DNA from: Escherichia phage vB_EcoM_G37-3
Sequence record: MK327941.1
Reading direction: 5' to 3' (one strand)
Length of the DNA stretch: 64,000 nt
Part shown: in pieces, positions 10,801-63,570 of the stretch
Numbering within the stretch: the stretch's first letter is position 1
Layout of the letters: each line of letters begins with the position of its first letter
Made by a program: the position numbers and the translations under genes
Notes under the pieces: generated by a model
Databases searched by the model: none
What the model was told of the DNA's origin: nothing
What the model saw: the letters and a program-made list of their open reading frames with translations, nothing else

Positions 10801-10937
10801 TTGCAATGAGTCCACTGTTTGACCAGTCGGCGGTAACATTCTCTATGTTCCGTGAGCTTGTGGATAAACGGTTGAAGGATAATATAGGGAATCCACGCGA
10901 TCCGAAGAATCCGACACAGAGGAAAATTAATGGCTAA
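7851..10937 (+). CDS. 7: baseplate wedge protein gp7
   Basis: 1028 aa (T4 gp7 1032 aa from memory); position. Confidence 0.8.
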   Translation: MIKAPSVTSLTIEKLSANQAYITWDDVGENFFYFVELAETRTRDGEIIPVDELSWVNLGYTAEQNWFEDKNLFPEYYYKFRVAVAAEGFEQSKWVETEEFQTFKTNAYNFSMMREFNLANEFIKEKFTYDNREYVKFNTDLIQASLMKEDFVFSPEYANMTNISNYIVVDENFHEIQDHIEKVCTDINHTMLAEMNGVLYLFERFQPIVKVSNDKGQSWKAYKAFNDRVGNPVSRTCVYQSKTTTYVLGYDRIFYGRQASDTRWSADDVRFSDDTITFAKVGDENDLGFDVEVFGVFSRLTGDTTKYAEAMACSDDYLWVGAKDVIRRIRLKNTPVDTVQGSPTFGEKIFDPDVIRVTGNDKAVIQKMDVVDGKLLVFVTGEVKQRYQDPTKPENVVPSDDAGVYLIGSDGLSFQRVFGNTPQEREYIQHGFSNMSTNGDEVFISHYNHHFESILPDPETAEKYELGEAVKYSHEPTYLTDKKIHQTTFRASYDDLRIWELGPQAYYNEADYTWMRRNGVRVWITNDNRPLVVYPEVIYTQEVDTSGILDQNRINREVYDKGTVTCYLNNVKFEGFKQYASGVMFHKNTGEIIGFYQFNYRVRDQVGVYWKPTNVAFVAELQNQVREVPWVPVHYDREQDPDLRPLLNKMTPDSFLLENENFRKFSEYYLQFLSDGSGTYYNKLKNLIKNKYPREKDAYEYLWSEMNKRNIYADKNKRDAVVRFFESRKSDFYSTKGVEASYKFLFKLLYNEDVEIEVESQAGLEYDIVVSSTNIDEDIVGRTIYTPTGRANVTYLEREYEGGRLRWRVTIHNLIGRFEEGQVIKSEKTAFEGMILVGVRGKELLSSSIDYINRSRSQYTMKIKSALPVSRYANDVMRFVHPVGFGFIGVTLLTMFINSGLSMKHTETIIQSLKNYKFDSGLPSVYPDRVADLDVDGNIKKDPLTGKALYLTSPLIGDEFPVPPEYDQENSELFHGLKASERRFAMSPLFDQSAVTFSMFRELVDKRLKDNIGNPRDPKNPTQRKING

Positions 10938-11925
10938 TGAAAATAGTGTGATCTATCGCTCAATCATTACTAGTAAATTCAGAACGGAAAAACTTCTGAA
11001 TTTCTATAATTCTGTAGGCGATGGGGCAAATCAAATTACAATTTATGGAACGTTTGGACGTTCGGAGCCGTGGTCAGAAAACGAAAAAGAGGTGGGCTTT
11101 GCCCCACCTTATCCGACCGATTCAACGGCTGGTGTTGTTGACATGTGGACCCATATGATGGGGGCGGTTAAGATTAACAAATCACTTCTTGATGCGGTTA
11201 TCCCTCGTAAAGATTGGGGTGATACCGGACAGGATAACCCGCGCACATTCTTTATCAATGACATTGTTGTTGTCAACTCAGCACCATATAACCGAACTGA
11301 TGTTGGTAGCGGCTGGATGGTGTATCGCGTAACCGATGTTCCTGATCGCGGTTACTGCTCGATTTCAAGCATTGACGCTAAAGTAGAGTGTTTGAAGTTG
11401 GGCGGAAAGTGGACACCCACTCATGAATCAATTGCGCCACCTGTAGGAAAGGGCGATTCTATTGATATGGGTGATGGGTATCGTTGGGAATATCTGTACA
11501 CAATTCCACCTGATGCGGCGATCAACCGTTGCACCAATGAACATATTGTTGTACCGTTCCCCGATGAACTGCGACAAGATCCGGCGCGTTGGGGTTATGA
11601 CAATGTGATCACCTGGTATAATGACTATAATCTGCTTTATCGGCTGAAAGTAGTAACTTTGCGTTTTCAGGCTTATATGGACTCTGCGCAATTCCCAACT
11701 ACCGCGTTAGTGGGTAATACTGGTTTCCGTCAGTTAAGCATTATCCTTAACCCATTGGAAAAGAAAGCACGCCCTAGCGATCCAGACGTTAAAGCGGTTG
11801 AAGATAAGTACCGACCGCAAGACTTAGAGCCACACTCAGGCGAAATGATCTACATGGAAAACCGACAACCTATCGTTCGGTCATTAGATCAAACAGAACT
11901 TGTTTCTGTATTGTTTGAGTTCTAA
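10930..11925 (+). CDS. 8: baseplate wedge protein gp8
   Basis: 331 aa (T4 gp8 334 aa from memory); overlaps gene 7 stop. Confidence 0.8.
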   Translation: MANENSVIYRSIITSKFRTEKLLNFYNSVGDGANQITIYGTFGRSEPWSENEKEVGFAPPYPTDSTAGVVDMWTHMMGAVKINKSLLDAVIPRKDWGDTGQDNPRTFFINDIVVVNSAPYNRTDVGSGWMVYRVTDVPDRGYCSISSIDAKVECLKLGGKWTPTHESIAPPVGKGDSIDMGDGYRWEYLYTIPPDAAINRCTNEHIVVPFPDELRQDPARWGYDNVITWYNDYNLLYRLKVVTLRFQAYMDSAQFPTTALVGNTGFRQLSIILNPLEKKARPSDPDVKAVEDKYRPQDLEPHSGEMIYMENRQPIVRSLDQTELVSVLFEF

Positions 11926-11940
11926 GTGTATGATTTAAAA

Positions 11941-11966
11941 AGCCAATTCTAGAGAGTTGGCTTTTT
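11941..11966 (+). terminator. rho-independent terminator after gene 8
   Basis: agccaa-N10-ttggct hairpin followed by TTTT. Confidence 0.6.
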
Positions 11967-11978
11967 CTATTTTGGGTG

Positions 11979-12006
11979 TTGACAATCTTGTCTGATAAGG
12001 TATAAT
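11979..12006 (+). promoter_or_regulatory. sigma70-type early promoter TTGACA-N16-TATAAT
   Basis: Consensus hexamers read in sequence; about 30 nt upstream of ATG 12036 with GGAGG SD. Confidence 0.6.
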
Positions 12007-12035
12007 GCTCACATCTAAACAACGGAGGATAAATT

Positions 12036-12293
12036 ATGGCACGTCGTAAATTTACAGATAATTGTGAAGCAATTCAGGTATCCCCTTGCGGTTGGGATGT
12101 GATCGCGAACGGTGAAAAGATCGGAGAGATCATCGATCATACTCATTCATCACTAGCCGATTACACCGATGAACTATGGGAGGGTATCAACTTCATGAAT
12201 GACACTAAACGATTCAAGACTATCGACGAAGCTATCTATTTTGTGTATAATCCAACTTTCGGTATGTGGGGAACTAGAAAATGGCACGCGTAA
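12036..12293 (+). CDS. hypothetical protein (85 aa), first gene of inserted early cassette
   Basis: ORF track; strong SD; begins MARRKF; overlaps next ORF. Confidence 0.55.
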   Translation: MARRKFTDNCEAIQVSPCGWDVIANGEKIGEIIDHTHSSLADYTDELWEGINFMNDTKRFKTIDEAIYFVYNPTFGMWGTRKWHA

Positions 12294-12613
12294 ACATTAA
12301 ACTACACTACACAATGGGTAAAGCTAAGTTCCCAATGCAAAAGCATTACTATGGTCTACGTGCACAAGATCCAAAACTCTATGGTACTCATTGGTTTTGT
12401 AAACATGATAACCAATGGCACACATACGAAGAAATGCACGAGATGATGAAACAGGGTATTGAATTGAGTTATTCTAATTATGACCATCGTATAACTTGCA
12501 TTCGAAAATTGAAACGATGGATTCGTAAGAATCCGCAATTTAAAAACTTTGTGTTCTTTATGTCTCATGTTTATTTGGGACATAGCGTTACCGTCACAGC
12601 AAAGGTTAAATAA
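12281..12613 (+). CDS. hypothetical His/Cys/Trp-rich protein (110 aa)
   Basis: ORF track; begins MARVNI; stop overlaps next start (TAATG). Confidence 0.55.
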   Translation: MARVNIKLHYTMGKAKFPMQKHYYGLRAQDPKLYGTHWFCKHDNQWHTYEEMHEMMKQGIELSYSNYDHRITCIRKLKRWIRKNPQFKNFVFFMSHVYLGHSVTVTAKVK

Positions 12614-13452
12614 TGGCACGACTTTCTAAACAAGAACAAAAATTACACGATCGGGTGATGGAGTTGATTAATTCAGATCGCCCATTGACATATGAAGAAA
12701 AAGAATTTTGCTATAATAACTATCATGGCGATGGTCTAGGCGGTTCAGGTGCATTCTTTACCCCAGAAGGGCTTGCATGGGATTTTACCATCGATGCACA
12801 TTGCACAGGAAAAGTATTAGATCTTTGTGCTGGGATCGGTCGCTTATCTTTTTGTATGTTACATCGTTGTAAGCCAGAAAAGATCGTATGCGTCGAACTC
12901 AATCCAGAATTTGCGCGGATTGGCAAGCGACTATTACCGGAGGCAGAATGGATCACCAGCGATGTATTCGAATTTGAGTCAAACGAAAAATTCGATGTGG
13001 TGATCAGCAATCCACCCTTCGGGAAAATCAATACAACCGACACAAAGGATGTATTTGAGTACACTGGTGGCGAATTTGAATTTAAGGTTATGACATTAGG
13101 CCAGAAGTTTGCCGATGTAGGTTATTTTATTGTTCCTTCTGGTTCCGCTGGTTTTGCCTATTCCGGCAGACCTTATTATGACGGGACCATGAAGTCTAAT
13201 AAATATCTAAAATGGAGCAAACAAACTGGTTTGGTGACTTATGCCGGATGTGGGATCGATACATCAATCTATCGTGATGAATGGCATAGTACCAACGTTT
13301 TAACAGAAGTGGTTGAGGTTCGGTATTACGAGAAAGAAGCCGTAGAAGCGCCTAAATCACGTCCTAACGAACAAATAGAAGAAAGTAAGGAGATTACCTT
13401 ACCGAAACAGGAAAGCGAGTCTGGGACGCTCTCAGATTTGTTTGACATTTAA
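12613..13452 (+). CDS. AdoMet-dependent amino-methyltransferase, gamma-class N6-adenine DNA MTase-like
   Basis: 279 aa; motif X-like GAFFTPEG, motif I VLDLCAGIGRLS, motif IV VISNPPFGK in gamma-class order. Confidence 0.7.
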   Translation: MARLSKQEQKLHDRVMELINSDRPLTYEEKEFCYNNYHGDGLGGSGAFFTPEGLAWDFTIDAHCTGKVLDLCAGIGRLSFCMLHRCKPEKIVCVELNPEFARIGKRLLPEAEWITSDVFEFESNEKFDVVISNPPFGKINTTDTKDVFEYTGGEFEFKVMTLGQKFADVGYFIVPSGSAGFAYSGRPYYDGTMKSNKYLKWSKQTGLVTYAGCGIDTSIYRDEWHSTNVLTEVVEVRYYEKEAVEAPKSRPNEQIEESKEITLPKQESESGTLSDLFDI

Positions 13453-13457
13453 TTATA

Positions 13458-13483
13458 AGCCGTCCTTGTGGACGGCTTTTTTG
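13458..13483 (+). terminator. rho-independent terminator after MTase gene
   Basis: agccgtcc-ttgtg-ggacggct followed by TTTTT. Confidence 0.6.
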
Positions 13484-13492
13484 TATGTGTTT

Positions 13493-13500
13493 TATAAATA
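13493..13500 (+). promoter_or_regulatory. late promoter motif TATAAATA upstream of gene 9
   Basis: Exact TATAAATA about 27 nt upstream of ATG 13528. Confidence 0.55.
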
Positions 13501-13527
13501 ATACATCATAACATGAGGAATTAAACA

Positions 13528-14382
13528 ATGGCACAAGTTCCAAAGAAAAGAATAGACACAGGTACTGTCGGCAATCCATCGACTGGCGATATCTTATATG
13601 ATGGCGGTAATAAAATTAACGATAACTTTGATTCAATATATGACGCATTTGCTGATCAACGTCTAAAAGAGATTGATCATGGTGCTGGTCGAATGGTTAT
13701 TCATGCCACGGGATACTATCAGAAACACCCACGACAAAGCTATGCAGGGTCGGCGGTAGAGATTGGTAGCTTACATGATATTGACACAACTCAAGGCGCA
13801 TTAATAGCAATTCTTCCTAAAGCTAAAGTCGGTGAGGGTGTTGTGTTCATAAATAGTAACGGTAGCTTTTCGGCAACAACACCACTAAACATTAGAACTC
13901 AAGCAGGAGATTCTATTAGCGGGTATTCCGGTGACGCGGTAATAACTCAACCTTTCTCAAAAGTCACCGTCTGGTGTACTGCCGTCGAAGGTAGTAGAGT
14001 TACCTGGCGGCTAGGCATCGAAAGTATGTTTACCGACACAACCACACCACTAGATAGGACAGTTAATGTAACTGGAGTTGCAACCAACGTTGCTATTGCA
14101 GCAAAAACAGAATATGTATCAATTAAACTATTAACAACCGCTAGCAATACGACGGGTTCAAAAATGCGCTCAAGCGAAACTCTATTGATGATTGATGCCA
14201 GAGCCGGAAAAGTTTACGCGACAGAATATGCGGTTTTACAGAAAACAGAAGACGAATTATACACGGTTCGTTATTTCATTGGTTCCGGCGATAAAGTATA
14301 TGCAGAGTATAAGGCTACTGGCGAAAATATTCGTTTAGCAGTTAAAGCCACAGACACTATTAAAATCGGGGTTGCTACATGA
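13528..14382 (+). CDS. 9: baseplate wedge / long-tail-fibre socket protein gp9
   Basis: 284 aa; N-terminus PKKRIDTGTVGNPSTGDILYDGGNKIN resembles T4 gp9 (from memory). Confidence 0.8.
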   Translation: MAQVPKKRIDTGTVGNPSTGDILYDGGNKINDNFDSIYDAFADQRLKEIDHGAGRMVIHATGYYQKHPRQSYAGSAVEIGSLHDIDTTQGALIAILPKAKVGEGVVFINSNGSFSATTPLNIRTQAGDSISGYSGDAVITQPFSKVTVWCTAVEGSRVTWRLGIESMFTDTTTPLDRTVNVTGVATNVAIAAKTEYVSIKLLTTASNTTGSKMRSSETLLMIDARAGKVYATEYAVLQKTEDELYTVRYFIGSGDKVYAEYKATGENIRLAVKATDTIKIGVAT

Positions 14383-16838: not shown

Positions 16839-18242
16839 ATGAATAACACTATTAATCACGTAAAAGACGATGCACAGTATGTTAAGTTTGACCCTACCGG
16901 AAATTGGCCTAGCAATATAAAAAACGTACAAGCGGCATTAGCCGCTATTCAGGGATTTGCGATTGCAGGTCTTCCAACGGCAACCGAAGAAACAGCGGGT
17001 ATTGCTGAAATTGCTACTCAACAAGAAGTAGATGATGGGTTGGATGGAACGAAAATTGTTACCCCAAAAACATTGGCTGTTAAGCTGTCAAGACCGGACG
17101 CAACAAAACTTGTCAAAGGGATCACTCGCTATGCTAATAACGATGAAGCTATGGGCGATACTCCAAATATTGCAATTGGTCCTGATACATTAACCCATGT
17201 ATTCGAGAACAAGAAAGCAACGGAAACCGTACAGGGTACAATTAAAATCTGTTCTATGGATGCGGCAAAAATAGGTAGCGATGACACTATGGCAGTAACG
17301 CCTAAAAAGATGCACGCTGCTATTGCTCAGATTGTTCCAGGGTTGATTCCAGAACAAAACACGGCGACCGAGTCCCGTGAGGGTTTAGTTAGACTGGCGA
17401 CAAGCCAACAAACGCTTGCTGGTACTATCAGAGAAGGATTTGCCGTTAGTCCATATGCATTTTCCAACGCAAGAGCCAATGAAAATCAGGCGGGTACTGT
17501 TAAAATTGCCTCATCCCAACAAATGATTGACGGCAATGACAACACAGTAGTAGTATCAGCACAAAAATTTGCGAACACTAAAGCAACCACTGGACAATTC
17601 GGTGTTGTTAAGCTAACAGATAACCCAGGATCAGGCGAGGCAAACACAGCACTGTCGGCAAACGCTCGTGTATTGCCTCTAAGTGGTGGTGTCGTTACTG
17701 GTGATGTGTATCGTCATAGCGGAGGCGACGGAAACCAGTTTATCATTAAAAATGAACTGGATGGTCTTTGTATGCCTATTGGTGGCATCATTCTTACAGC
17801 ATTTAACAGTTTCGACCACGCACAATTCAAAATCTGTAACGGTCAATGGTTAAATAAACACCAATATCCAGTATTATTTTCACGAATCGGTTTCACTTAT
17901 GGCGGAGATGGTGGAGACAACTTTGCTCTACCCGATATGCGAGGGCTTGTTGCTAGAGGATGCGACCACGGTCGAGGACTAGACCCAGGTCGTGGATTTG
18001 GTACTTATCAAGACGACACCATGCAACATATGACAGGTAACTTCCCTGTAGCTAACCGTTGGCGCGGTTGGACTGGTGGTGCATTTGCCATCACAGGCGG
18101 TCAATGGAGCACGAACTATAAAAACGGTGGTGGCGATGATTGGGGTAGTATTGTTAACTTTGACAGCGCAAGACAGGTTAGAACGTCTGGCGAAACTCGC
18201 GTTAAAAGCCTTGCATTAAACTACATGATAAGGGTACAATAA
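16839..18242 (+). CDS. 12: short tail fibre protein gp12
   Basis: 467 aa; repetitive G-T-x-K/AG-x-A-x-IA segments and position after gene 11. Confidence 0.85.
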   Translation: MNNTINHVKDDAQYVKFDPTGNWPSNIKNVQAALAAIQGFAIAGLPTATEETAGIAEIATQQEVDDGLDGTKIVTPKTLAVKLSRPDATKLVKGITRYANNDEAMGDTPNIAIGPDTLTHVFENKKATETVQGTIKICSMDAAKIGSDDTMAVTPKKMHAAIAQIVPGLIPEQNTATESREGLVRLATSQQTLAGTIREGFAVSPYAFSNARANENQAGTVKIASSQQMIDGNDNTVVVSAQKFANTKATTGQFGVVKLTDNPGSGEANTALSANARVLPLSGGVVTGDVYRHSGGDGNQFIIKNELDGLCMPIGGIILTAFNSFDHAQFKICNGQWLNKHQYPVLFSRIGFTYGGDGGDNFALPDMRGLVARGCDHGRGLDPGRGFGTYQDDTMQHMTGNFPVANRWRGWTGGAFAITGGQWSTNYKNGGGDDWGSIVNFDSARQVRTSGETRVKSLALNYMIRVQ

Positions 18243-20011
18243 TGATCGAACAGTTAAACATTCGAAAGATCCCTAACGTCGATGGTGTCCCTGGAGAGGG
18301 ACAGCATTCTATTAGCTGGATTAAAAATGGTGAATGTCTAAGCGCAGCAACCACAGAAACAGGACACGAGGGGACGCTTAACCGCGCCCCTTATGCGATT
18401 CAAGAAAATATTGTTCGTCTGGATGAAAATTCTAAGACAACGGTAACAAAAGTTAACGAAGTTGTTACAGCAGTTAATGATATTAAAACTACTTTAGGCG
18501 CGGTTGCTGATGGTAGTATTATTGATATTGTCAATCAAACTATTGCAAAGGTTGAGTCTGTAGAAGAAAATTTAGGAGAAACTTCAAGGACATTACAAAC
18601 CACAGTAGATGAACTGGCGGAGACAGGAAAGAAAATTGGTGTTCGTCCGGCAGCAGATCCGAGTACACGAACAATATATGATGATATTTCTTTCATCAAA
18701 CAAGAATTGGGCGCTTTCCCTAACTTCAATATCAACGGTTCTCCAGATCCGGGTAGTTCCGGTTCCGGTATCAAATATCGAGTTATCCAGAATACGGAAG
18801 CATTAAACAACCACGGTCAGCGAATCCGCCAACTAGAAAACGACTGGCAAGATTCTGACGTTGGAGAGCTAACAAAACAAGTTAACAAAATGCGAAGCGA
18901 GCTAGGCGATACATCACTAGCAACACAGGACAATGTTTATCTTCGTCTTCGCACAAATACTCGCAATATCGCTAGTATATCAAACGAAGTTCAGGAAGTA
19001 AAGAAAGCGATTCTATTTGAATCAATTCCTGATATCGGGACTAAAGTAACTAAGCTACAATCTGATTATACACAGCTTAATGATGAAGTCAACGGCGTTG
19101 ACGCTGGTATCCGTCCTCGTTTAACTCTTCTGGAAAATAATATTGGCAATCCTCAAGCCGCTGGAAGTATTGATTATCGATTGACTAATCAAGAACGGGA
19201 ATGTGTAGATCTTAAATCTGTTGTCGGTGTTAGTGGTGCTGATGGCCTACGTGGTGAGGTTGCACGAATATCTAACACAGTTGGTACTGATAGTGAGCGT
19301 CATACTATCGCAGGTCGTCTAAAAATTGTAGAAAACACACAGGGACGACTAGAAGCTAGCGTACAGGATATCGAGCAAATGATCGGCGATCGAGATTCCG
19401 GTCTAACCGCCGGGGTTATTAAGCTGTCAAGCGACATGTACGGTAATCCAGAAGGAAGCACGCAGCTTGAACAAGATGGGATCGTGAAAACTGTTAAGGA
19501 ATTGAGCACATCCAATGCAAGTAAGGTAACAGACGTTCCTGATGATGGTTTCCATTATCTACGTAAGCACGGGGAATGGGTTCAGGTCGCATGGGCGGCT
19601 GGTGCATTTAAAAACACCGCTCAGATTGATATTACTCTCGACGGACAAGATCAATACAAAGGAATCCCGCTAAACGATATGACCGAAGAAGTTCCTGCGC
19701 GTGGAATGGTTAAGAGCGAATCTATTGTTACGGTTAACGACAAAGGCTTATTCCGTTGTGTTTTCCGTTGTTCTGTACATGCTGCACATAACGCTACTTT
19801 CGTAGTCGGTATTGCTAAAAATGGTCAGATTGTACATGAGGTACGAAATGGTCAGTATGGAACTGATGATTTAATTAGCTATTCTACCAGTGCTTTCCTA
19901 AATATTGAAAAGGGCGACCGGATCGATATTCGCATTAAGGGCGTATCCGAAGAAACATTAGCGCAACAGCTACAAATTAAAGAGTTCCTCTTTGGAATTT
20001 CTCCGGTATAA
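18242..20011 (+). CDS. wac: fibritin (whisker) with foldon-like segment plus ~120-aa extra C-terminal domain
   Basis: 589 aa; coiled-coil-like repeats; DGFHYLRKHGEWVQV resembles T4 foldon DGQAYVRKDGEWVLL; T4 fibritin (487 aa) ends right after the foldon. Confidence 0.8.
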   Translation: MIEQLNIRKIPNVDGVPGEGQHSISWIKNGECLSAATTETGHEGTLNRAPYAIQENIVRLDENSKTTVTKVNEVVTAVNDIKTTLGAVADGSIIDIVNQTIAKVESVEENLGETSRTLQTTVDELAETGKKIGVRPAADPSTRTIYDDISFIKQELGAFPNFNINGSPDPGSSGSGIKYRVIQNTEALNNHGQRIRQLENDWQDSDVGELTKQVNKMRSELGDTSLATQDNVYLRLRTNTRNIASISNEVQEVKKAILFESIPDIGTKVTKLQSDYTQLNDEVNGVDAGIRPRLTLLENNIGNPQAAGSIDYRLTNQERECVDLKSVVGVSGADGLRGEVARISNTVGTDSERHTIAGRLKIVENTQGRLEASVQDIEQMIGDRDSGLTAGVIKLSSDMYGNPEGSTQLEQDGIVKTVKELSTSNASKVTDVPDDGFHYLRKHGEWVQVAWAAGAFKNTAQIDITLDGQDQYKGIPLNDMTEEVPARGMVKSESIVTVNDKGLFRCVFRCSVHAAHNATFVVGIAKNGQIVHEVRNGQYGTDDLISYSTSAFLNIEKGDRIDIRIKGVSEETLAQQLQIKEFLFGISPV

Positions 20012-20017
20012 GAAATT

Positions 20018-20040
20018 AAAGGGGCGTTAAGCCCCTTTTC
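20018..20040 (+). terminator. rho-independent terminator after wac
   Basis: aggggc-gttaa-gcccct followed by TTTT. Confidence 0.6.
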
Positions 20041-20057
20041 CGTTTATAGGTGATATT

Positions 20058-20990
20058 ATGTCAGGATATGTAACCAATAACCCAAGAGAATTAAAAGACG
20101 CTATTCTGCGTCGTTTAGGCGCACCAGTAATTAACGTAGAAGTCACAGAAGACCAGATTTACGATTGTATTCAGAGAGCACTAGAACTCTATGGGGAATA
20201 TCATTTCGATGGTGTGAATAAAGGATATAAAGTATTTCGTGTTAGTGCAGAGCAAGCGCAACACGGGGTATTTGATTTAAGCGATTCTGGAGTATTCGCA
20301 GTAACTAAAATAATTCGAACAAACGTAGGTAGCGCGGCTACGATGGATGGTACTGCCGTTTATCCGTGGTTTACTGACTTTCTGTTGGGTTTAGCGGGTG
20401 TAAATGGCGGTTTAGGATCTGGCTGTAGTAAATTTTATGGTCCAAATGCAATGGGCGGTGATCTGGGATATTTCGAACAGCTTATGAGCTATCGCGCAAC
20501 TATGCAAAATATGCTCAATCCGCTTCCAGATTATTGGTATAATAGCGCAAACGGACAACTTAAGATTACAGGAAACTTCCGAGAAGGTGATCTCATTGTT
20601 GTTGAATTATATGTTAAAAGCTATATAGACGTTCCTGATATGATCGGTGCGGTTGCTGGTTATGCTCATGCGGGAGGATGTTCTACCGCTGGCGGGATTA
20701 GCGCCGTTTATGATAACCCAACTGCTGGTTTAAGCGGGATTGTTGCTGGCATGGGACCGATCCGTGATAACAAGCAGGGCGCATATAATAACCGTTGGGT
20801 TAAAGACATGGCAACCGCTTTCACTAAGGAGGTGTGGGGGTCCATCATGGCTAAACATCAAGGTCTGCAATTACCCGGAGGTGTCACTGTTGATGGTATC
20901 CGAATCATTGAAGAAGCACGCGCCGACATTGAGAAATTGCGACAAGAACTACTTGACTTAGATCCACCATTTGGTATACTAATGATTTGA
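20058..20990 (+). CDS. 13: neck protein gp13
   Basis: 310 aa (T4 309); position. Confidence 0.8.
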
Positions 20991-37706: not shown

Positions 37707-37734
37707 ATTATAGGCATCTAAATCGCTCTGTCAA
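37707..37734 (-). promoter_or_regulatory. sigma70-type promoter (reverse strand) TTGACA-N16-TATAAT
   Basis: Reverse complement of tgtcaa (37729-37734) and attata (37707-37712). Confidence 0.5.
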
Positions 37735-40126: not shown

Positions 40127-41814
40127 ATGCAAGATATTAAATTCACTTTCTGAACTACTCCCATGTTCAAATTGAATGTAGCGATTCAATTTTATTAGAA
40201 ATGCGAGATTATTTTAGTTTTGAAGTCGAGGGAGCGCGGTTTCAAAAAAGATTTAAGTATGGTGGATGGGATGGGCGTATTCGTCTTTTAGATTACAACG
40301 GAAAGCTGCCAATCGGTCTAACTAAAACCGTGGGAATCTTCGCTAAAAATATGGGCTATAGCGTATGGGTAGATCCTCGCTTATTCGAAAAAGAACAAGT
40401 TACAGAAGAAGAAATTACAAAATGGTGTAATAACTTAGAATTATATTCCGGTGCTAACAGGATCACCCCTCATTGGTATCAATCAAAGGCCGTCTTTGAA
40501 GGTATTTCATCATAAACGCCGTATGTTAGTTTTGCCTACGTCCGCTGGTAAATCTGCGATTGCTTGTATGTTGTCTCGTTGGTACTTAGAGAATTACGAA
40601 GGGAAAGTGTTGATCATCGTTCCTACCACGTCGCTAGTGCTGCAAATGCGTGATGACTTTGTTGATTATCGCCAGTTTCCTTATGAAGCAATTCATACTA
40701 TCATGAGCGGTACTAGTAAACACGTAGGTGATCGCCTGATCGTTGTTAGTACGTGGCAATCTGCATGTAAACAACCTAGTGAGTGGTTCCAACAATTCGG
40801 GATGGTTATTGTTGACGAATGTCACAAGGCCACTGCTAAAACCTGCTAAACATCGTTACTGATATGGATCATTGTCAATTTAAGATCGGCATGACTGGTT
40901 CCCCTCGTGACGGGAAAGCTAACATGATGCAGTATGTCGGGCTTTTCGGTGATATTTCTAAGATCGTGAGTATTGACCGCCTGATGGAAGAAGGGCAGGT
41001 GACAAAACTGAAAATTAACTGTCTTTTCCTTCGTTATACCGATGAGGAATAGCGCGGTTAAGGGGCGAGAATATGCGGAAGAGATCAAGTACATTACATC
41101 TAACCCACGACGAAATAAGTTTGCTTGTAATTTGGCGCTAAAACTCGCTAAGAAGGGCGAAAACGTATTCCTGATGTTCCGCAACACTAAGCACTGAAAA
41201 TTAACTGTCTTTTCCTTCGTTATACCGATGAGGAATGTAGCGCGGTTAAGGGGCGAGAATATGCGGAAGAGATCAAGTACATTACATCTAACCCACGACG
41301 AAATAAGTTTGCTTGTAATTTGGCGCTAAAACTCGCTAAGAAGGGCGAAAACGTATTCCTGATGTTCCGCAACACTAAGCACGGAAAACTTATGTATGAT
41401 GCGTTACAGAAGGTACACGACAAGGTTTATTATATTGACGGTGGAGTTAAGACAGAAGAACGTGATGAATTTAAGAAATTAGCGGAAGGGGAAACCGGGA
41501 TCATTTGCGTTGCATCCTATGGTGTGTTCTCTACTGGTGTTTCCATCAAGAATTTGCATCATGTTATTTTCGGTCATCCAGTGAAGGAATCAACTATCGT
41601 TCGTCAGAGTATCGGTCGTGCATTGCGTAAACATGGTTCTAAGGATATTGCAACGGTCTGGGATCTTATAGATCATCTGGCGGTGAAGACAAAGAGCAAT
41701 AATGCTAAGAAACAGTTTAGCCACCTTAATTATGCTCTTAAACATGCGCTTGAAAGAATAAAAATTTACAACACCGATCGATTCGAATATGTCACGAAAA
41801 CAATCGAGATTTAA
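40127..41814 (+). pseudogene. uvsW: uvsW (RNA-DNA/DNA-DNA helicase) disrupted by at least three frameshifts and an internal tandem duplication
   Basis: Pieces MQDIK (40127), frame A to 40515, frame B to 40849, frame C 40840..41052, frame C 41191..41814; each aligns to consecutive segments of T4 UvsW as recalled (FSFE..RF..RFKYGGWDGRIRLLDYN, LPTSAGKS, DECH, SPRDGKANMMQYVG, HGSKDIATVWDLID). Confidence 0.75.
41007..41380 (+). repeat. perfect tandem duplication inside uvsW (copy 1 41007-41192, 186 bp; copy 2 41193-41380, 188 bp)
   Basis: Copies identical except a 2-bp (gt) deletion in copy 1 that creates TAG at 41050-41052. Confidence 0.85.
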
Positions 41815-41818
41815 TAAA

Positions 41819-41842
41819 TAGGGGCTTTAATGCCCCTTTATT
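41819..41842 (+). terminator. rho-independent terminator after uvsW
   Basis: aggggc-tttaat-gcccct followed by T-rich tract. Confidence 0.55.
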
Positions 41843-41857
41843 CTACGGAGATTAAAA

Positions 41858-42094
41858 ATGATTAGCTTTAAACGTTTTTTGGTTGAGGCCGCTATTGACG
41901 GTTTCATGCGTAAGATTTATTCTTGTAATACTATCGAGGGATTAAATGAACTTGAGGCATATTATGAGAAGCGCAAGAAAGAAACAGAATTGAAACCTGC
42001 TGATGATATTTCGATCCGTGATGCCATCGCTGGACGCCGTAAGCAATTGGAAGCGGACAACGAGCCAGAAGAGGAGCCGGAAGAGGATTTTTAA
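41858..42094 (+). CDS. hypothetical acidic protein at the uvsW.1 position
   Basis: 78 aa ORF track; GGAG SD; position matches T4 uvsW.1. Confidence 0.5.
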   Translation: MISFKRFLVEAAIDGFMRKIYSCNTIEGLNELEAYYEKRKKETELKPADDISIRDAIAGRRKQLEADNEPEEEPEEDF

Positions 42095-42100
42095 GATATA

Positions 42101-42130
42101 AAAAAGCCCCATCAATGATGGGGCAAAATA
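42101..42130. terminator. bidirectional terminator hairpin gcccc-atcaatgat-ggggc flanked by A/T runs
   Basis: Lies between convergent forward and reverse genes. Confidence 0.55.
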
Positions 42131-42157
42131 AACCAATTAAAATCGGTTATCAACAAA

Positions 42158-42334
42158 TTACATTAACAGCATTGTTTGCTCTACGAGTTGTTCTTGTTCT
42201 TCGCCGTTCGCATCTTCACTAATCGAACGTTCTGTTACTAGCTGTAAGCAGTAGCCAGTGTGAACAACGCCGTTTTCTGTCTGGACGGATAACGCATCCT
42301 CGACAGGTTGTTTACAACAAATACAGATTTTCAT
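42158..42334 (-). CDS. hypothetical small Cys-rich protein (58 aa), downstream of uvsY
   Basis: GGAGGA SD before ATG 42334; MKICICCKQPVEDALSVQ...; below track cutoff. Confidence 0.45.
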   Translation of the reverse strand: MKICICCKQPVEDALSVQTENGVVHTGYCLQLVTERSISEDANGEEQEQLVEQTMLLM

Positions 42335-42355
42335 AAAAATTCCTCCTGCATGTAT

Positions 42356-42763
42356 TTAGCGACCAGATTCCAGCATACGCAATTCTATAGCATTCTTGAT
42401 CGCAAAGCCACGAGATTTAACGATATCAAGTGCGCGACCAGCGAAATCCATTACCATCTGGTAATATGCAATTTTCGTATCAAGCGGTAAGATCTCGTCG
42501 TCTGCTGCCATGACAACTTTCAATTCTGATTTCTCATATTCAGCACGACACCAGTCATCACTACGGTTAGTGTAAAAGTCAAGACGATTTTTCATAGCCT
42601 TTTTCTTTTTAGCCTCAAGAGCAATCGTCTCTCTTTTCGCCTCGCTGTAAATCCTTAACCACTTTGAGTATACTACCGGATTATTCAGCGCCTCCCATTG
42701 CAACTTAGTCGCATCGATCTTCATGTCAGATTCTAATTGTTCTTTCAAATCGTTTAGGTCCAT
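42356..42763 (-). CDS. uvsY: recombination mediator protein UvsY
   Basis: 135 aa; ATKLQWEALNNPVVYSKWL and KSRGFAIKNAIELRMLESG resemble T4 UvsY. Confidence 0.9.
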   Translation of the reverse strand: MDLNDLKEQLESDMKIDATKLQWEALNNPVVYSKWLRIYSEAKRETIALEAKKKKAMKNRLDFYTNRSDDWCRAEYEKSELKVVMAADDEILPLDTKIAYYQMVMDFAGRALDIVKSRGFAIKNAIELRMLESGR

Positions 42764-53809: not shown

Positions 53810-53838
53810 ATTATAGGGGATCGATGATCCCCTGTCAA
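53810..53838 (-). promoter_or_regulatory. PeSL-like early promoter cassette: TTGACA, 17-nt palindromic spacer (ggggatc..gatcccc), TATAAT, conserved leader
   Basis: Reverse complement gives TTGACAggggatcatcgatccccTATAAT; A-tract upstream. Confidence 0.6.
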
Positions 53839-60812: not shown

Positions 60813-60842
60813 ATTATAGGGGAGTTTAACCTCCCTTGTCAA
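60813..60842 (-). promoter_or_regulatory. PeSL-like early promoter cassette (TTGACA, ggggag..ctccc spacer, TATAAT)
   Basis: Read in sequence. Confidence 0.55.
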
Positions 60843-61601: not shown

Positions 61602-62075
61602 TTACTCCTTATTTTCGCGCTCGTACTTTTCGAAATAAAATTCTACTGGCTGGTCATGAATTGACAGCAAGCCAAAGCGTTTAGCCGCTCGCAATCCCAT
61701 ATTGCGCTGAATGTACTTCTGGAAGTTCTCGCGTATACACTTACGCCAGTATTCTAAGCCCATACAGCTTTTATAAAGATTGCATTGCACACACGCCGGA
61801 TTCATGTTATCAAGTATATCATGTTCCGGTTTATGCATTCCTACAACCTTATACTTCCACGATCCATCATCATTACGGGCAATTCGTCCATTTTCATCAT
61901 AGACTACCTTTGAGCGTCGCAATACTGGTTTGATGTGGTCTGCGTGCCAGCGATCCCCTAGTTCCTCGCCACAATAGGCACAACGTCCACCATATTTCAT
62001 TTTCAGGATCTGGCGTTGCTCTTTCTTTGACAATTTTTTAGGTTTAGGGGCTTTCGCCCCTTCATTATCACACAT
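61602..62075 (-). CDS. HNH endonuclease-domain protein
   Basis: 157 aa; CAYCGEELGDRWHADHIKP ... NMNPACVQCN zinc-HNH motif; start overlaps DNA ligase stop by 8 nt. Confidence 0.65.
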   Translation of the reverse strand: MCDNEGAKAPKPKKLSKKEQRQILKMKYGGRCAYCGEELGDRWHADHIKPVLRRSKVVYDENGRIARNDDGSWKYKVVGMHKPEHDILDNMNPACVQCNLYKSCMGLEYWRKCIRENFQKYIQRNMGLRAAKRFGLLSIHDQPVEFYFEKYERENKE

Positions 62076-63570
62076 CGAATACCTCTTTTACTGTATTTGC
62101 AGTGGTCTTGTCGTAGCGAATACGTTTGATGATCGGGAGAAATAAAGAGAACTCCGGTTCATCTTCTTTACGTGATTTGCTGCGGATATACCCGTTGCAT
62201 GTCATCTCAATGACTTTTCCAATCAGGTTATGACGGTCAGCCCATAACATTTCTCGGTCGAGTTCATTTCGACGATCGAACGGAATTACACGTTCAATAC
62301 CATCATCACCTTTTTCGGTTGTAGTGTCGGTTAATCCCGATCCGGTGTTAGTCATCATTCGTCCGCACGCACTACGGACAGTAAAACCGCCTACCTTATT
62401 GGGGTCTTTACTATGCGGATATACATCAACAATTTCCGCGTCGAAGTCAATCACTTCTTTAAATTTAACCTGATCTTTACTACGGCGATCTTCAAATACA
62501 CCATGTAAATTTTTAAGGATAATACCTTCTAAGCCCATGTTTACATAGCGATGATATACTTCGCGAGCTTCATCTATATTGTTAACTACAGTGTTTTCGA
62601 TTATCTGAACACGAGGATCGTTAAGTTCTTCAACAATCTGTTTTAGTTCTTCGAATCGATCTTTATATTGCTTCGTTGCTTTCTCGTTTCCGTAATACAC
62701 ATCACGGTCGATAACATCCCAGACAGTATAAACAATACATTGGGCTTCTTCTTTTGGAATAGTTCCTTTAAGTGATTTGTTGAGGATACCATTTCCGGTC
62801 TGACGGTCTGCAACAACGGATTCTTTTACTGCTTCCGCTACTGGCGTTAATGGCATTTCCTCTTCTTCAAATATCCATGACAGAGTACCATCATAAACGC
62901 TTTCAACGAAGTTCTGCGCTGGTGTTTGCGAAAGGGTAGGCATATATACCAATTCGCCATCTAGAACAATTCCACGGCCTCGTAGACGCTCTAAAACCGC
63001 AAACAAATCATCAAGTCCCTGATAGGTATTACCTGAACGGGTATAGATTGCTAATGTTTCCCCGTCAATATCAGCCATACCACGAGCACCATCGCTTTTA
63101 AGTTGTGCATACGCCGGATACTTGATATTAGCAATAGCCTTATCAGAATATGACGATGCAAGGTGACACGGTTGCTGGGGGATCAGTTTCTTCCATACCT
63201 TGTTTGCAGTGGTAGCGGAACAACCACATTCCAGATCACGATTCAGGACCATCATTGCAACTTTAGCATCATCTTCTGACAAGCAAGTCAGAGTATCGGT
63301 AACTAGCTGTAATGCTGCGTTACCAGTTACTTGACGCGTGGCAAGTTTATTTTTAAAGACCTGTAATGCACCGGATAAAGACAATACAGACGAATAACGC
63401 GATGGTTTATCGTATTTCTTTACGCCAAACGTAACCTGTTTGCAATATGCCAGATAAAAGCATTCTTTCAGTGTTTCATTGCTTGCAGATTCTTTCAGGA
63501 TCTTTTCTTTCAGCGATGTTTTGTCTGTTGCTGCAAGCTGGTTAATGATATTAAGAATTGACATTTTCAC
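62068..63570 (-). CDS. 30: ATP-dependent DNA ligase gp30
   Basis: 500 aa; QLKSDGARGMADI (adenylation Lys motif), NKSLKGTIPKEEAQC, EGIILKNL resemble T4 DNA ligase. Confidence 0.9.
   Translation of the reverse strand: MKMSILNIINQLAATDKTSLKEKILKESASNETLKECFYLAYCKQVTFGVKKYDKPSRYSSVLSLSGALQVFKNKLATRQVTGNAALQLVTDTLTCLSEDDAKVAMMVLNRDLECGCSATTANKVWKKLIPQQPCHLASSYSDKAIANIKYPAYAQLKSDGARGMADIDGETLAIYTRSGNTYQGLDDLFAVLERLRGRGIVLDGELVYMPTLSQTPAQNFVESVYDGTLSWIFEEEEMPLTPVAEAVKESVVADRQTGNGILNKSLKGTIPKEEAQCIVYTVWDVIDRDVYYGNEKATKQYKDRFEELKQIVEELNDPRVQIIENTVVNNIDEAREVYHRYVNMGLEGIILKNLHGVFEDRRSKDQVKFKEVIDFDAEIVDVYPHSKDPNKVGGFTVRSACGRMMTNTGSGLTDTTTEKGDDGIERVIPFDRRNELDREMLWADRHNLIGKVIEMTCNGYIRSKSRKEDEPEFSLFLPIIKRIRYDKTTANTVKEVFDV

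Follow-up and report, generated by a model that had tools for sequence, protein, structure and literature searches.

In T4-type phages the baseplate genes 8 and 9 are direct neighbours, but in the genome of Escherichia phage vB_EcoM_G37-3 (MK327941.1) they stand 1.6 kb apart, which raises the question of what the intervening DNA encodes. The window analysed here is a stretch of 64,000 nt of this genome, and all features described below lie on its + strand. Gene 8, encoding a baseplate wedge subunit (10930..11925; Pfam Phage-Gp8, E 1.4e-143), and gene 9, encoding the baseplate wedge tail-fibre connector (13528..14382; Pfam T4_gp9_10_N, 5.8e-41), form the upstream and downstream limits of the insertion. 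The adjacency of the two genes, which the initial annotation had stated, holds true in RB14 (T4-type), IME13 and leB, where the gap measures just 9–63 nt, and the 1.6 kb found here are therefore a lineage-specific insertion. The source lineage is Krischvirus (RB49-like), with 57 Krischvirus records spanning at least 80% of a 2.1-kb query. The same annotation had described positions 11926-13527 as an early-promoter cassette placed between late baseplate genes, and each element that it listed was found, displaced at most by a few bases. It had also proposed a comparison of the junction in related phages. In L106, L107 and L108 (gp8 80–88% identical) the order runs from gp8 through a stem-loop, TTGACA/TATAAT, the methyltransferase gene, a terminator and TATAAATA to gp9; the slot keeps the methyltransferase and is variable for the two small ORFs, ORF1 and ORF2, that precede it here.

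At its upstream end the insertion carries a stem-loop/terminator (11937..11966), a 13-pair stem followed by a T-run, which lies upstream of the -35 box of a sigma-70-type early promoter (11979..12006). The TTGACA (11979-11984) and TATAAT (12001-12006) boxes match the consensus at 12/12 positions and are separated by a 16-nt spacer; by chance the window would be expected to hold 0.11 perfect TTGACA-N16-TATAAT sites, and it holds 8. A Shine-Dalgarno sequence (GGAGGA, 12024-12029) is followed by the ATG of the ORFan ORF1 at 12036. The whole 96-nt stretch containing stem and promoter folds with -26.1 kcal/mol in RNAfold and is laid out like the PeSL at 37707, and an equivalent stem-loop occupies the same place in the relatives L106 and L108. 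Stem-loop and promoter together are the published PeSL element, an identity missed at first. The arrangement is that of the PeSL cassettes of RB49 and phi1 (Arbiol et al. 2010, PMC2839356; Comeau et al. 2014, PMC4122927): an intergenic sigma-70 consensus promoter is accompanied by a stem-loop and leads directly into ORFans equipped with a Shine-Dalgarno sequence and ATG, and the placement of the stem 5' of the -35 box corresponds to one of five described PeSL subclasses. RB49 and phi1 were reported to hold about 50 PeSLs, of which a few lie within virion modules beside genes of unknown function, and promoter and terminator activity were assayed for PeSLs other than the cassette's own (PMC2839356). 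Neither the gene 8-9 locus nor any methyltransferase is mentioned in the PeSL papers (PMC2839356, PMC4122927).

The downstream end is built differently. An intrinsic terminator (13457..13478; 9-pair stem with 6 GC pairs, then a T-run), which has counterparts in L106, L108 and the RB14 8-9 gap, closes the early cassette. The T4-type late promoter of gene 9, TATAAATA, follows at 13493..13500 by direct sequence reading; all 9 occurrences of this element in the window are on the + strand, and it is also found 5' of gene 9 in RB14, L106 and L108. In contrast to the published cassettes there is no second flanking PeSL: the downstream end holds no second early promoter, only the terminator (13457-13478) and the late promoter, and PeSL-PeSL mini-circle excision is therefore not evident. 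The two terminators, the consensus promoter and the gene 9 late promoter of the initial annotation all stand, and the perfect sigma-70 promoter, flanking terminators and late promoter bear out the reading as an early-promoter cassette inside a late baseplate operon.

Between the promoter and the methyltransferase gene lie ORF1 (12036..12293; 85 aa, phrog_16603) and ORF2 (12281..12613; 110 aa, phrog_12630), two ORFans that appear to be accessory passengers. ORF1 overlaps ORF2 by 13 nt and ORF2 overlaps ORF3 by 1 nt. All three proteins begin Met-Ala-Arg, as had been noticed, and their genes even open with an identical 8-mer, ATGGCACG, of which the two strands of the window together hold only 5 copies. 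These overlapping frames, the one common promoter, the shared start and the 94–100% conservation of the trio in 57 Krischvirus records are the features on which ORF1, ORF2 and ORF3 might be taken for one three-component DNA-modification or anti-restriction system, the small ORFs having been proposed as partners of ORF3. We reject such a system as very improbable because of the distribution of the genes, which occur apart in both directions. The Vequintavirus FV3 has homologues of ORF1 and ORF2 and no methyltransferase, and Bas52 has ORF2 alone, whereas the methyltransferase is found without either small ORF in the gp8-gp9 slot of relatives as well as in over 200 further phages and prophages. 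In these Krischvirus relatives the succession is gp8, PeSL, methyltransferase, terminator and gp9; the place of ORF1 and ORF2 is either empty or taken by a different ORF of 154 aa. ORF1, which forms one cluster among 5.8 billion proteins, is confined to Krischvirus and 3 Vequintavirus records; it is absent in L106-L108, split in two pieces in RB49, and in Vequintavirus present or absent at a translation start. ORF2 exists in Krischvirus as two alleles (72% and 98% identity) within otherwise uniform cassettes. No match of ORF1 or ORF2 in Pfam or NCBIfam reached a curated cut-off, and the low-confidence AF2 model of ORF2 (pLDDT 61) found no fold match in Foldseek except its own orthologue. The small ORFs upstream of the RB16/KP15 methyltransferase were considered as possible homologues and rejected, as they encode a membrane-like protein and an acidic protein with no homology to ORF1 or ORF2. 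Judged by distribution, ORF1 and ORF2 are unrelated ORFans in a variable slot between promoter and methyltransferase, most probably hitch-hikers, and a false lead is removed with them. The insertion between genes 8 and 9 in the Krischvirus lineage is best read as a PeSL-driven early cassette whose conserved cargo is a single gene, ORF3.

ORF3 (12613..13452; 279 aa) encodes a methyltransferase. Its catalytic domain (aa 1-240; 12613..13332) is of the N6-adenine amino-methyltransferase type, with motif X (FFTP, aa 48-51, 12754-12765), motif I (VLDLCAGIG, aa 68-76, 12814-12840) and motif IV (NPPF, aa 133-136, 13009-13020, fitting (D/N/S)PP(Y/F/W)) in the gamma-type order X, I, IV that was claimed originally. 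In 32 homologues the columns FFTP, LCAGIG and N-P-x-F-G are invariant, and D70 and P135 are variable. No Pfam family of its own exists for ORF3; it scores 29.0 with Eco57I (PF07669, cut-off 25.3), 38.5 with the generic MTS model (cut-off 23) and 16.7 with N6_Mtase (PF02384, cut-off 20.4). Structure prediction, one of the checks recommended at the outset, yields one folded domain of some 240 aa with a disordered tail behind it, and the modelled fold matches N6-adenine methyltransferases. No separate target-recognition domain is visible in the model, where the sole candidate for one is an insertion at about aa 180-225. The longest alignments are those in which the helical N-terminal part containing GAFFTP aligns to HsdM, MmeI and lmo1582. 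Against the solved structures of lmo1582 (2F8L), HsdM, M.TaqI, MmeI, METTL5 and PH1948, ORF3 shows only 10–25% identity and differs in having no target-recognition domain. A PDB profile search with the family alignment gave weak Rossmann-core matches only and no close solved structure.

The substrate is less readily assigned than the fold. DNA and RNA methyltransferases score alike in the comparison with the predicted ORF3 structure, and the nearest named sequence relatives are, at weak scores, RNA or protein methyltransferases. ORF3 might methylate RNA (rRNA or tRNA, m6A or m2G) or protein (glutamine, PrmC-like) as a means of host takeover, which we consider improbable. All matches of this kind fall far below their family cut-offs. 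The PrmC/HemK assignment of some GenBank records was rejected, with 37.5 bits for TIGR03534 against a cut-off of 199.1 and the Rossmann core alone aligning, and the alignment of the helical N-terminus to HsdM, MmeI and lmo1582 also argues against an RNA or protein substrate. For the Krischvirus TB34, whose cassette is 97.4% identical to the one described here, virion DNA was reported to have 'no detectable modified DNA', with no modified nucleosides by HPLC-MS (PMC13390438). Dense adenine methylation is thereby excluded; on sparse sites the result is uninformative, because TB34 encodes its own Dam and was grown on a dam+ host, and even so m6A went unreported. The initial annotation had allowed that ORF3 homologues might all prove to be RNA or protein enzymes and the virion DNA to lack methylation. 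On its face this is partly borne out by the nearest named relatives and the unmodified TB34 DNA; an assignment of ORF3 to RNA or protein enzymes is improbable, the scores being weak and below the family cut-offs. Krischviruses have no hmC pathway genes, and virion DNA of RB49, like that of TB34, is unmodified.

Phage orphan adenine methyltransferases of the T4 Dam type have no cognate nuclease and are presumably protective. ORF3 resembles T4 Dam in being phage-encoded without a cognate nuclease, no nuclease gene being present in the cassette, and differs from it in sequence class, as Dam belongs to the unrelated alpha class. The near-identical phage G5211 already has a Dam (record positions 41785-42597), which carries no clamp-like tail. 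We regard ORF3 as a putative orphan N6-adenine DNA methyltransferase.

Beyond the catalytic domain, ORF3 continues into an acidic, variable linker of about 30 aa (aa 241-269; 13333..13419) that is disordered in the predicted structure (pLDDT means of 62, 49, 45 and 48 in the 10-residue blocks from aa 241) and ends in the C-terminal epitope SGTLSDLFDI (aa 270-279; 13420..13449), a predicted gp45 sliding-clamp-binding peptide. The initial annotation overlooked this clamp-like tail. Among Krischvirus copies the linker varies and the tail is invariant. In the L106 and L108 lineages the methyltransferase tails read LDFVDFSEI and SLSMFDI. The end of ORF3, TLSDLFDI, is identical at 6 of 8 positions to the end of the DNA polymerase gp43 (...VASLTDLFDI) of G5211, a near-identical phage but a different isolate from the window's own genome, and the remaining two positions are S/T swaps. 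The G5211 gp43 tail is in turn colinear in alignment with residues 886-902 of RB69 gp43 (...KKASLFDMFD), and the last 11 residues of the RB69 polymerase have reportedly been co-crystallised with the gp45 clamp. When 953 ORFs were scored against the gp43 tail, ORF3 came first after gp43 itself with a score of 32, some 6 sd above the mean (mean -7.4, sd 6.4), and the next scored 19. Origin of the tail by recent copying of the 3' end of gp43 was considered and found unsupported: ORF3 and gp43 agree in just their last 15 nt and use different codons further upstream. The likeness suggests that the ORF3 tail mimics the gp45-clamp-binding tail of the phage polymerase, and such a copy suggests that methylation may be physically coupled to replication.

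The clamp epitopes of gp43, gp33 and gp55 (Geiduschek & Kassavetis 2010, PMC2988020) have the same design, with a hydrophobic-acidic peptide at the very C-terminus joined by an unstructured, divergent linker, and these tails are interchangeable. The carrier is different, being a methyltransferase with predicted binding here and the clamp loader, gp43, gp33 and gp55 among the gp45 ligands listed. The portability of T4 clamp epitopes (PMC2988020), the invariance of the tail above a varying linker and the rank of the gp43 match at about 6 sd all weigh against ORF3 being an ordinary, freely diffusing orphan methylase, an anti-restriction moron whose tail has no clamp function and resembles gp43 fortuitously or for some other purpose. 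The identity of the last 15 nt makes a chance or recombinational match conceivable, and several T4-like lineages (Aeromonas phages, phiM12 and a Vibrio phage), all enterobacterial prophage copies and about half of the family representatives have no tail. In view of what is found at the same position in other lineages, we judge a freely diffusing enzyme unlikely.

Outside Krischvirus the methyltransferase is present, without ORF1 and ORF2, in about 230 phage records and many prophages. After grouping at 50% identity, 74 of 143 representatives extend at the C-terminus by 12 aa or more; 30 of these 74 have the Q-motif and 44 have [LIMF]F close to the terminus, compared with backgrounds of 0.9% and 6.8%. 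Distant family members on temperate-phage-like contigs terminate, a few residues from the C-terminus, in QLSLF, QLDLF, QADLF or QLDIF, like the bacterial beta-clamp motif QL(S/D)LF (review PMC9690074), whereas ORF3 itself has the gp45-type tail. The motif Qxx[LIM]F lies within the last 12 aa at 30/80 methyltransferase loci in IMG/VR (27 of them strict QL[SD]LF-like) against 3/1192 other ORFs, so that independent lineages carry the motif of another clamp at the position of the ORF3 tail. No gp43 or gp45 is encoded in the flanks of loci with beta-type tails. Two Rhizobium temperate phages, the only named phages found with tails of this type, end in GQLSLFGDAA and PQLSLFGDAA, and their methyltransferase genes are located beside other DNA methyltransferases and replication genes; one beta-tailed homologue is gp073 of Rhizobium phage RHph_N28_2. 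In RB16/KP15 the gene belongs to the replication module, with genes 41 and 61 on either side, and the tail LFTFTIE has only a loose resemblance to those of the phages' own gp43, gp33 and gp55; no other protein within 20 kb shares the 'FxFxIE' tail. The paper describing an 'unknown DNA modification' in KP15/KP27 does not identify an ORF3-type enzyme. Neighbours of this kind, and clamp-binding tails that would be sensible only for an enzyme acting on DNA, speak further against an RNA or protein substrate. It is possible, at somewhat less than even odds, that these genes form a family of phage and prophage adenine methyltransferases addressed to replicating DNA by swapped clamp tails, of gp45 type here and QL(S/D)LF where the host replisome is used.

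A clamp-bound ORF3 could also serve another end. The gp45 trimer offers three sites for ligands and also belongs to the late transcription complex (PMC2988020), and the modelled fold is compatible with RNA m6A enzymes. ORF3 could ride the gp45-gp33-gp55 complex and methylate nascent late RNA, or its tail could compete for clamp sites and thereby influence replication or late transcription. The invariance of the catalytic motifs means that catalysis rather than mere competition is under selection; moreover the relatives with beta-type tails occur in temperate phages, for which no clamp-coupled transcription is known in general. We give either variant very little credence.

The explanation that best accommodates the locus is that ORF3 is a replication-coupled, clamp-tethered orphan N6-adenine DNA methyltransferase, to which, as a whole and including the tether, we assign a probability of roughly 0.55. 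Host sigma-70 RNA polymerase would transcribe the cassette right after infection, with the flanking stem-loops insulating it from late read-through. ORF3 would then attach through its tail to gp45 clamps loaded onto phage DNA that is being replicated, track along the new duplex and methylate adenines at a presumed target site. The likely benefit would be protection of progeny DNA from restriction, or a general self mark. The usual picture of a phage orphan methyltransferase is that of an enzyme diffusing freely, in a cell where hundreds of genome copies arise within minutes and would have to be modified; a tether would explain how modification could keep pace with T4-type replication and remain confined to phage DNA.

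Should the tether prove real, a DNA-modifying enzyme would join the gp45 ligands and the beta-clamp interactome, in parallel to the replication-coupled maintenance methylation of eukaryotes. The beta-clamp partners listed in the review include no methyltransferase, and it also cites the eukaryotic coupling of Dnmt1 to PCNA by a PIP box (PMC9690074), where likewise a DNA methyltransferase is sent to new DNA by a short clamp motif. The likeness is one of analogy without homology, as the enzymes are of C5-cytosine and N6-adenine type respectively and both the position of the motif and the clamp differ. No prior report of a clamp-binding methyltransferase in bacteria or phages was found in the literature, and with clamp-addressed members the family would give Dnmt1-PCNA its first counterpart in viruses or bacteria. 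For Krischviruses, which lack the hmC pathway genes, it could provide a replication-dependent self mark, and it bears on the sensitivity of these phage-therapy-relevant viruses to restriction systems.

The interval between the baseplate genes gp8 (10930-11925, +; Pfam E 1e-143) and gp9 (13528-14382, +; Pfam E 6e-41) holds, in order and on the + strand, a stem-loop of 13 pairs (11937-11966), a perfect TTGACA-N16-TATAAT promoter (11979-12006), three overlapping ORFs (ORF1, 12036-12293; ORF2, 12281-12613; ORF3, the predicted methyltransferase, 12613-13452), a terminator (13457-13478) and the late promoter TATAAATA (13493-13500), all of them elements that the initial annotation had named. Perfect TTGACA-N16-TATAAT sites number 8 in the window against 0.11 expected, and the window has 9 copies of TATAAATA, all of them on the + strand. 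The two baseplate genes were also correctly held to be neighbors in T4, being just 9-63 nt apart in RB14 (T4-type), Tulanevirus IME13 and Pseudotevenvirus leB, and the RB14 gap already contains a terminator followed by TATAAATA; the 1.6 kb was thus inserted at a junction where a terminator and a late promoter already stood. Over 2.1 kb the locus is 100% identical to that of vB_EcoM_G5211 (G5211), an RB49-like Krischvirus, and 56 further Krischvirus records, among those covering at least 80% of this query, show 94-98% identity. The whole window is near-identical to G5211 yet represents a distinct isolate; the two differ by small indels upstream of 11700 and by ~1.4 kb of extra sequence between 13800 and 63900.

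The upstream end of the cassette (11937-12006) conforms to the published definition of a promoter-early stem-loop (PeSL), in which a consensus sigma-70 promoter and a neighboring stem-loop lie ahead of ORFans; ~50 PeSLs were described in RB49 and phi1 (Arbiol et al. 2010, PMC2839356). The stem-loop can occupy five positions, including upstream of the -35 box, and promoter and terminator activities have been demonstrated for other PeSLs (PMC2839356). The upstream-stem arrangement of the cassette recurs in the PeSL at 37707-37734 (-), and classical PeSLs with G-run/C-run stems between -35 and -10 are located at 53810-53838 (-) and 60813-60842 (-); the latter two share the upstream sequence AAAAAAGTTGTTGACA and are therefore potential recombination substrates. 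The cassette differs at its closing end, where a plain terminator stands instead of a second PeSL.

The initial annotation had treated ORF1 and ORF2 as partners of ORF3 in one module, a view that their distribution largely overturns. Both match PHROG families of unknown function and neither reaches a curated cut-off in Pfam or NCBIfam; the ORF2 structure model is of low confidence, and fold matches sought with it were not found. ORF1 (a single cluster among 5.8 billion proteins) is confined to Krischvirus and three Vequintavirus records, and ORF2 to Krischvirus and about 30 Vequintavirus records. In the Vequintavirus FV3 the two lie side by side among ORFans without a methyltransferase (L010 3756-4330), and Bas52 has ORF2 alone (L011 3832-4330), with a stem-loop and promoter resembling a PeSL upstream of it. 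FV3 has the leader CAGATACAGAACGGAGTAACAAAAATG ahead of ORF1 and Bas52 has it ahead of ORF2, so that ORF1 is an indel exactly at a translation start. Conversely, the genes ahead of the methyltransferase in RB16 and KP15 are small and unrelated to ORF1 or ORF2, and in enterobacterial prophages the methyltransferase stands by itself as the final gene, at the edge of the prophage. Metagenomic relatives (gp8 88% and 80% identical) provide the strongest evidence in the proposed comparison of the gene 8-9 junction: they keep the methyltransferase and lack both small ORFs. Two of them (L106, L107) have the order gp8, stem-loop, TTGACA/TATAAT, methyltransferase, terminator, TATAAATA, gp9, and a third (L108) has the same order with a different 154-aa ORF in the ORF1/ORF2 slot. 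What is conserved is thus the set of PeSL, methyltransferase and terminator, and ORF1 and ORF2 ride as passengers in a slot of variable content between promoter and methyltransferase.

Krischvirus records contain two alleles of ORF2 (98-100% and 71-75% identity to the window copy) inside cassettes otherwise at least 94% identical, indicating localised replacement. An identical 8-mer, ATGGCACG (Met-Ala-Arg), opens ORF1, ORF2 and ORF3 (12036, 12281 and 12613) and has 5 occurrences in 128 kb (both strands of the window); the Vequintavirus homologues begin MSL (ORF1) and MAH (ORF2), and the methyltransferases of relatives begin MAR encoded by other codons. The common starts possibly result from homogenisation or recombination at start-codon microhomology.

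ORF3 is a member of phrog_3820 (1e-117). This family comprises 338 clusters at 50% identity (E below 1e-30) and lacks a dedicated Pfam model, its members weakly matching MTS, Methyltransf_25, Eco57I or N6_Mtase. Its motifs X (GAFFTP), I (DLCAGIG) and IV (NPPF) do follow the gamma-class order claimed for them, and 32 homologues show no variation at FFTP, LCAGIG and N-P-x-F-G. The AlphaFold model (pLDDT 84.7, pTM 0.80) comprises one Rossmann domain of ~240 residues and a disordered tail. The alternative that all relatives methylate RNA or protein finds some support in sequence comparison with PDB and NCBIfam, where just weak Rossmann-core matches to PH1948, RsmC and PrmC appear, and fold matches on the RNA side are METTL5 (17.9), PH1948 (17.3) and ErmE (16.3); the longest fold alignments (205-222 residues, N-terminal helices included) are to DNA enzymes. 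The label 'release factor methyltransferase' in some records was rejected (37.5 bits against a model cut-off of 199). G5211, in which the genome beyond the window was read, also encodes a T4-type Dam elsewhere. Outside Krischvirus, T4-like phages have the methyltransferase gene within their replication module, flanked by genes 41 and 61.

The C-terminus of ORF3, where mean pLDDT falls below 50 from about aa 251 onward, is predicted from its sequence to be a clamp-binding tail. ORF3 ends ...ESGTLSDLFDI and the G5211 DNA polymerase gp43 ...KVASLTDLFDI, 6 of the final eight residues being identical and the remaining two S/T swaps; the tails of G5211 gp33 and gp55 are TNTLDI and PSLDQFYEIEN. When the 953 ORFs of 40 aa or more from six-frame translation of the window and the rest of G5211 were scored against the gp43 tail (mean -7.4, sd 6.4), ORF3 reached 32, compared with 39 for gp43 itself and 19 for the next best. 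The gp43 tail is colinear in alignment with residues 886-902 of RB69 gp43 (AAKLDYEKKASLFDMFD), and the 11 C-terminal residues of the RB69 polymerase have been co-crystallised with the RB69 clamp (Geiduschek and Kassavetis, PMC2988020). T4-type clamp-binding C-termini are freely interchangeable and hung on divergent unstructured linkers (PMC2988020), and ORF3 has exactly this design: among Krischvirus copies the linker varies (PKQESE, PEQETA, PEDKSP) and SGTL[ST]DLFDI is constant. ORF3 and gp43 DNA have only the final 15 nt in common, the upstream codons differing, so that the tail appears to be kept at the protein level and not to be a fresh copy. Among the aligned homologues, those from lytic phages have an acidic linker and are conserved at the very C-terminus; prophage copies have neither feature.

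A 500-aa DNA-ligase-like ORF (62068-63570, -), the second-best proteome match to the gp43 tail (score 19), ends ...TVKEVFDV and on this resemblance may be another clamp ligand. The RNase H of G5211 (record 143402-144349; L013:18403-19350, -) starts with MTYNPFTKTTATLNDFFDDP, a clamp-epitope-like hydrophobic-acidic stretch that is N-terminal and not C-terminal. Gene 43 of G5211 (record 17090-20882, L012) is in two ORFs, and the 825-bp ORF between them shows weak similarity to an intron or homing endonuclease gene.

Across 80 IMG/VR loci encoding ORF3 relatives the C-termini sort into four classes. The Krischvirus-type tail occurs at 3 loci and an 'FxFxIE' tail (LFTFTIE, TFDFRIE) at 9, in RB16-, KP15- and CC31-like T4 relatives; 31 loci have no tail (25 enterobacterial prophage copies of 51-61% identity and 6 others). 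Tails of the form QLSLFDAA, QLDLFGMAA, QLSLFGDAA, QMDLFGEAA, QADLFGVAA or QLDIFEQIA are found at 30 loci, and near-variants outside the regex (e.g. LDLFSEAA) place 7 further loci in the same class. The QLSLF/QLDLF-type tails of these distant relatives match QL(S/D)LF, the motif for binding the bacterial beta clamp, usually located at the C-terminus (PMC9690074). Qxx[LIM]F falls within the final 12 residues of 30/80 methyltransferases versus 3/1192 other ORFs of these loci (150 aa or longer), and a strict Q-motif pattern in 27 methyltransferases versus 0 other ORFs. Among 143 complete representatives in a non-redundant library, 74 extend at the C-terminus by 12 aa or more (median 26), with the Q-motif in 30/74 (background 0.9%) and [LIMF]F near the end in 44/74 (background 6.8%). 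The contigs that carry beta-tailed copies measure 10-90 kb and have neither gp43 nor gp45, the T4-type sliding clamp, in the flanks of the gene; such copies also occur in bacterial genomes (e.g. Pseudomonas, a Rhodospirillales MAG), and two are in temperate Rhizobium phages, where further DNA methyltransferases, a DnaA-like protein and a primase are their neighbors. Beta-tails in such settings suggest that tail type follows the type of clamp replicating the element. At two loci (L078:9098-9772, L075:7891-8562) the ORF directly upstream of the beta-clamp-tailed methyltransferase has a clamp-motif-like end (ARQGELFSGEAA, ARQGEMFA).

Against this, the FxFxIE tails resemble only loosely the gp43, gp33 and gp55 tails of their own phages (SLNTLFGDDW, TLDDFM, TLEMFL), and the tail is missing from T4-like copies of Aeromonas, phiM12 and Vibrio. 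The initial annotation had also counted unmethylated virion DNA against a DNA-modifying role, and HPLC-MS is reported to have detected no modified DNA in Krischvirus TB34 grown on DH5alpha (PMC13390438). The TB34 cassette is 97.4% identical to that of the window, and the result speaks against adenine methylation being dense or non-specific. No report of m6A was made for TB34 though DH5alpha is dam+ and the near-identical G5211 encodes Dam; evidently, m6A at sparse, specific sites lay below that study's level of reporting. Glucosylated hydroxymethylcytosine was found in DNA of Krischvirus SAP and not in that of TB34, the two being 99.96% identical (PMC13390438). The possibility that the relatives are RNA or protein methyltransferases, or that virions carry no methylation, keeps our confidence moderate.

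The cassette, its 'putative methyltransferase' annotation and PeSLs are already known. Among the papers searched, none was found to describe a methyltransferase of bacteria or phages that bears a clamp-binding motif; a sliding-clamp review cites eukaryotic Dnmt1-PCNA only (PMC9690074), and the gp45 ligands in a review of T4 late transcription are the clamp loader, gp43, gp33 and gp55 only, with no methyltransferase among them (PMC2988020). For an orphan methyltransferase of a phage, a predicted tether to the clamp thus appears to be new, and the mechanism, plausible though unproven, is readily testable.
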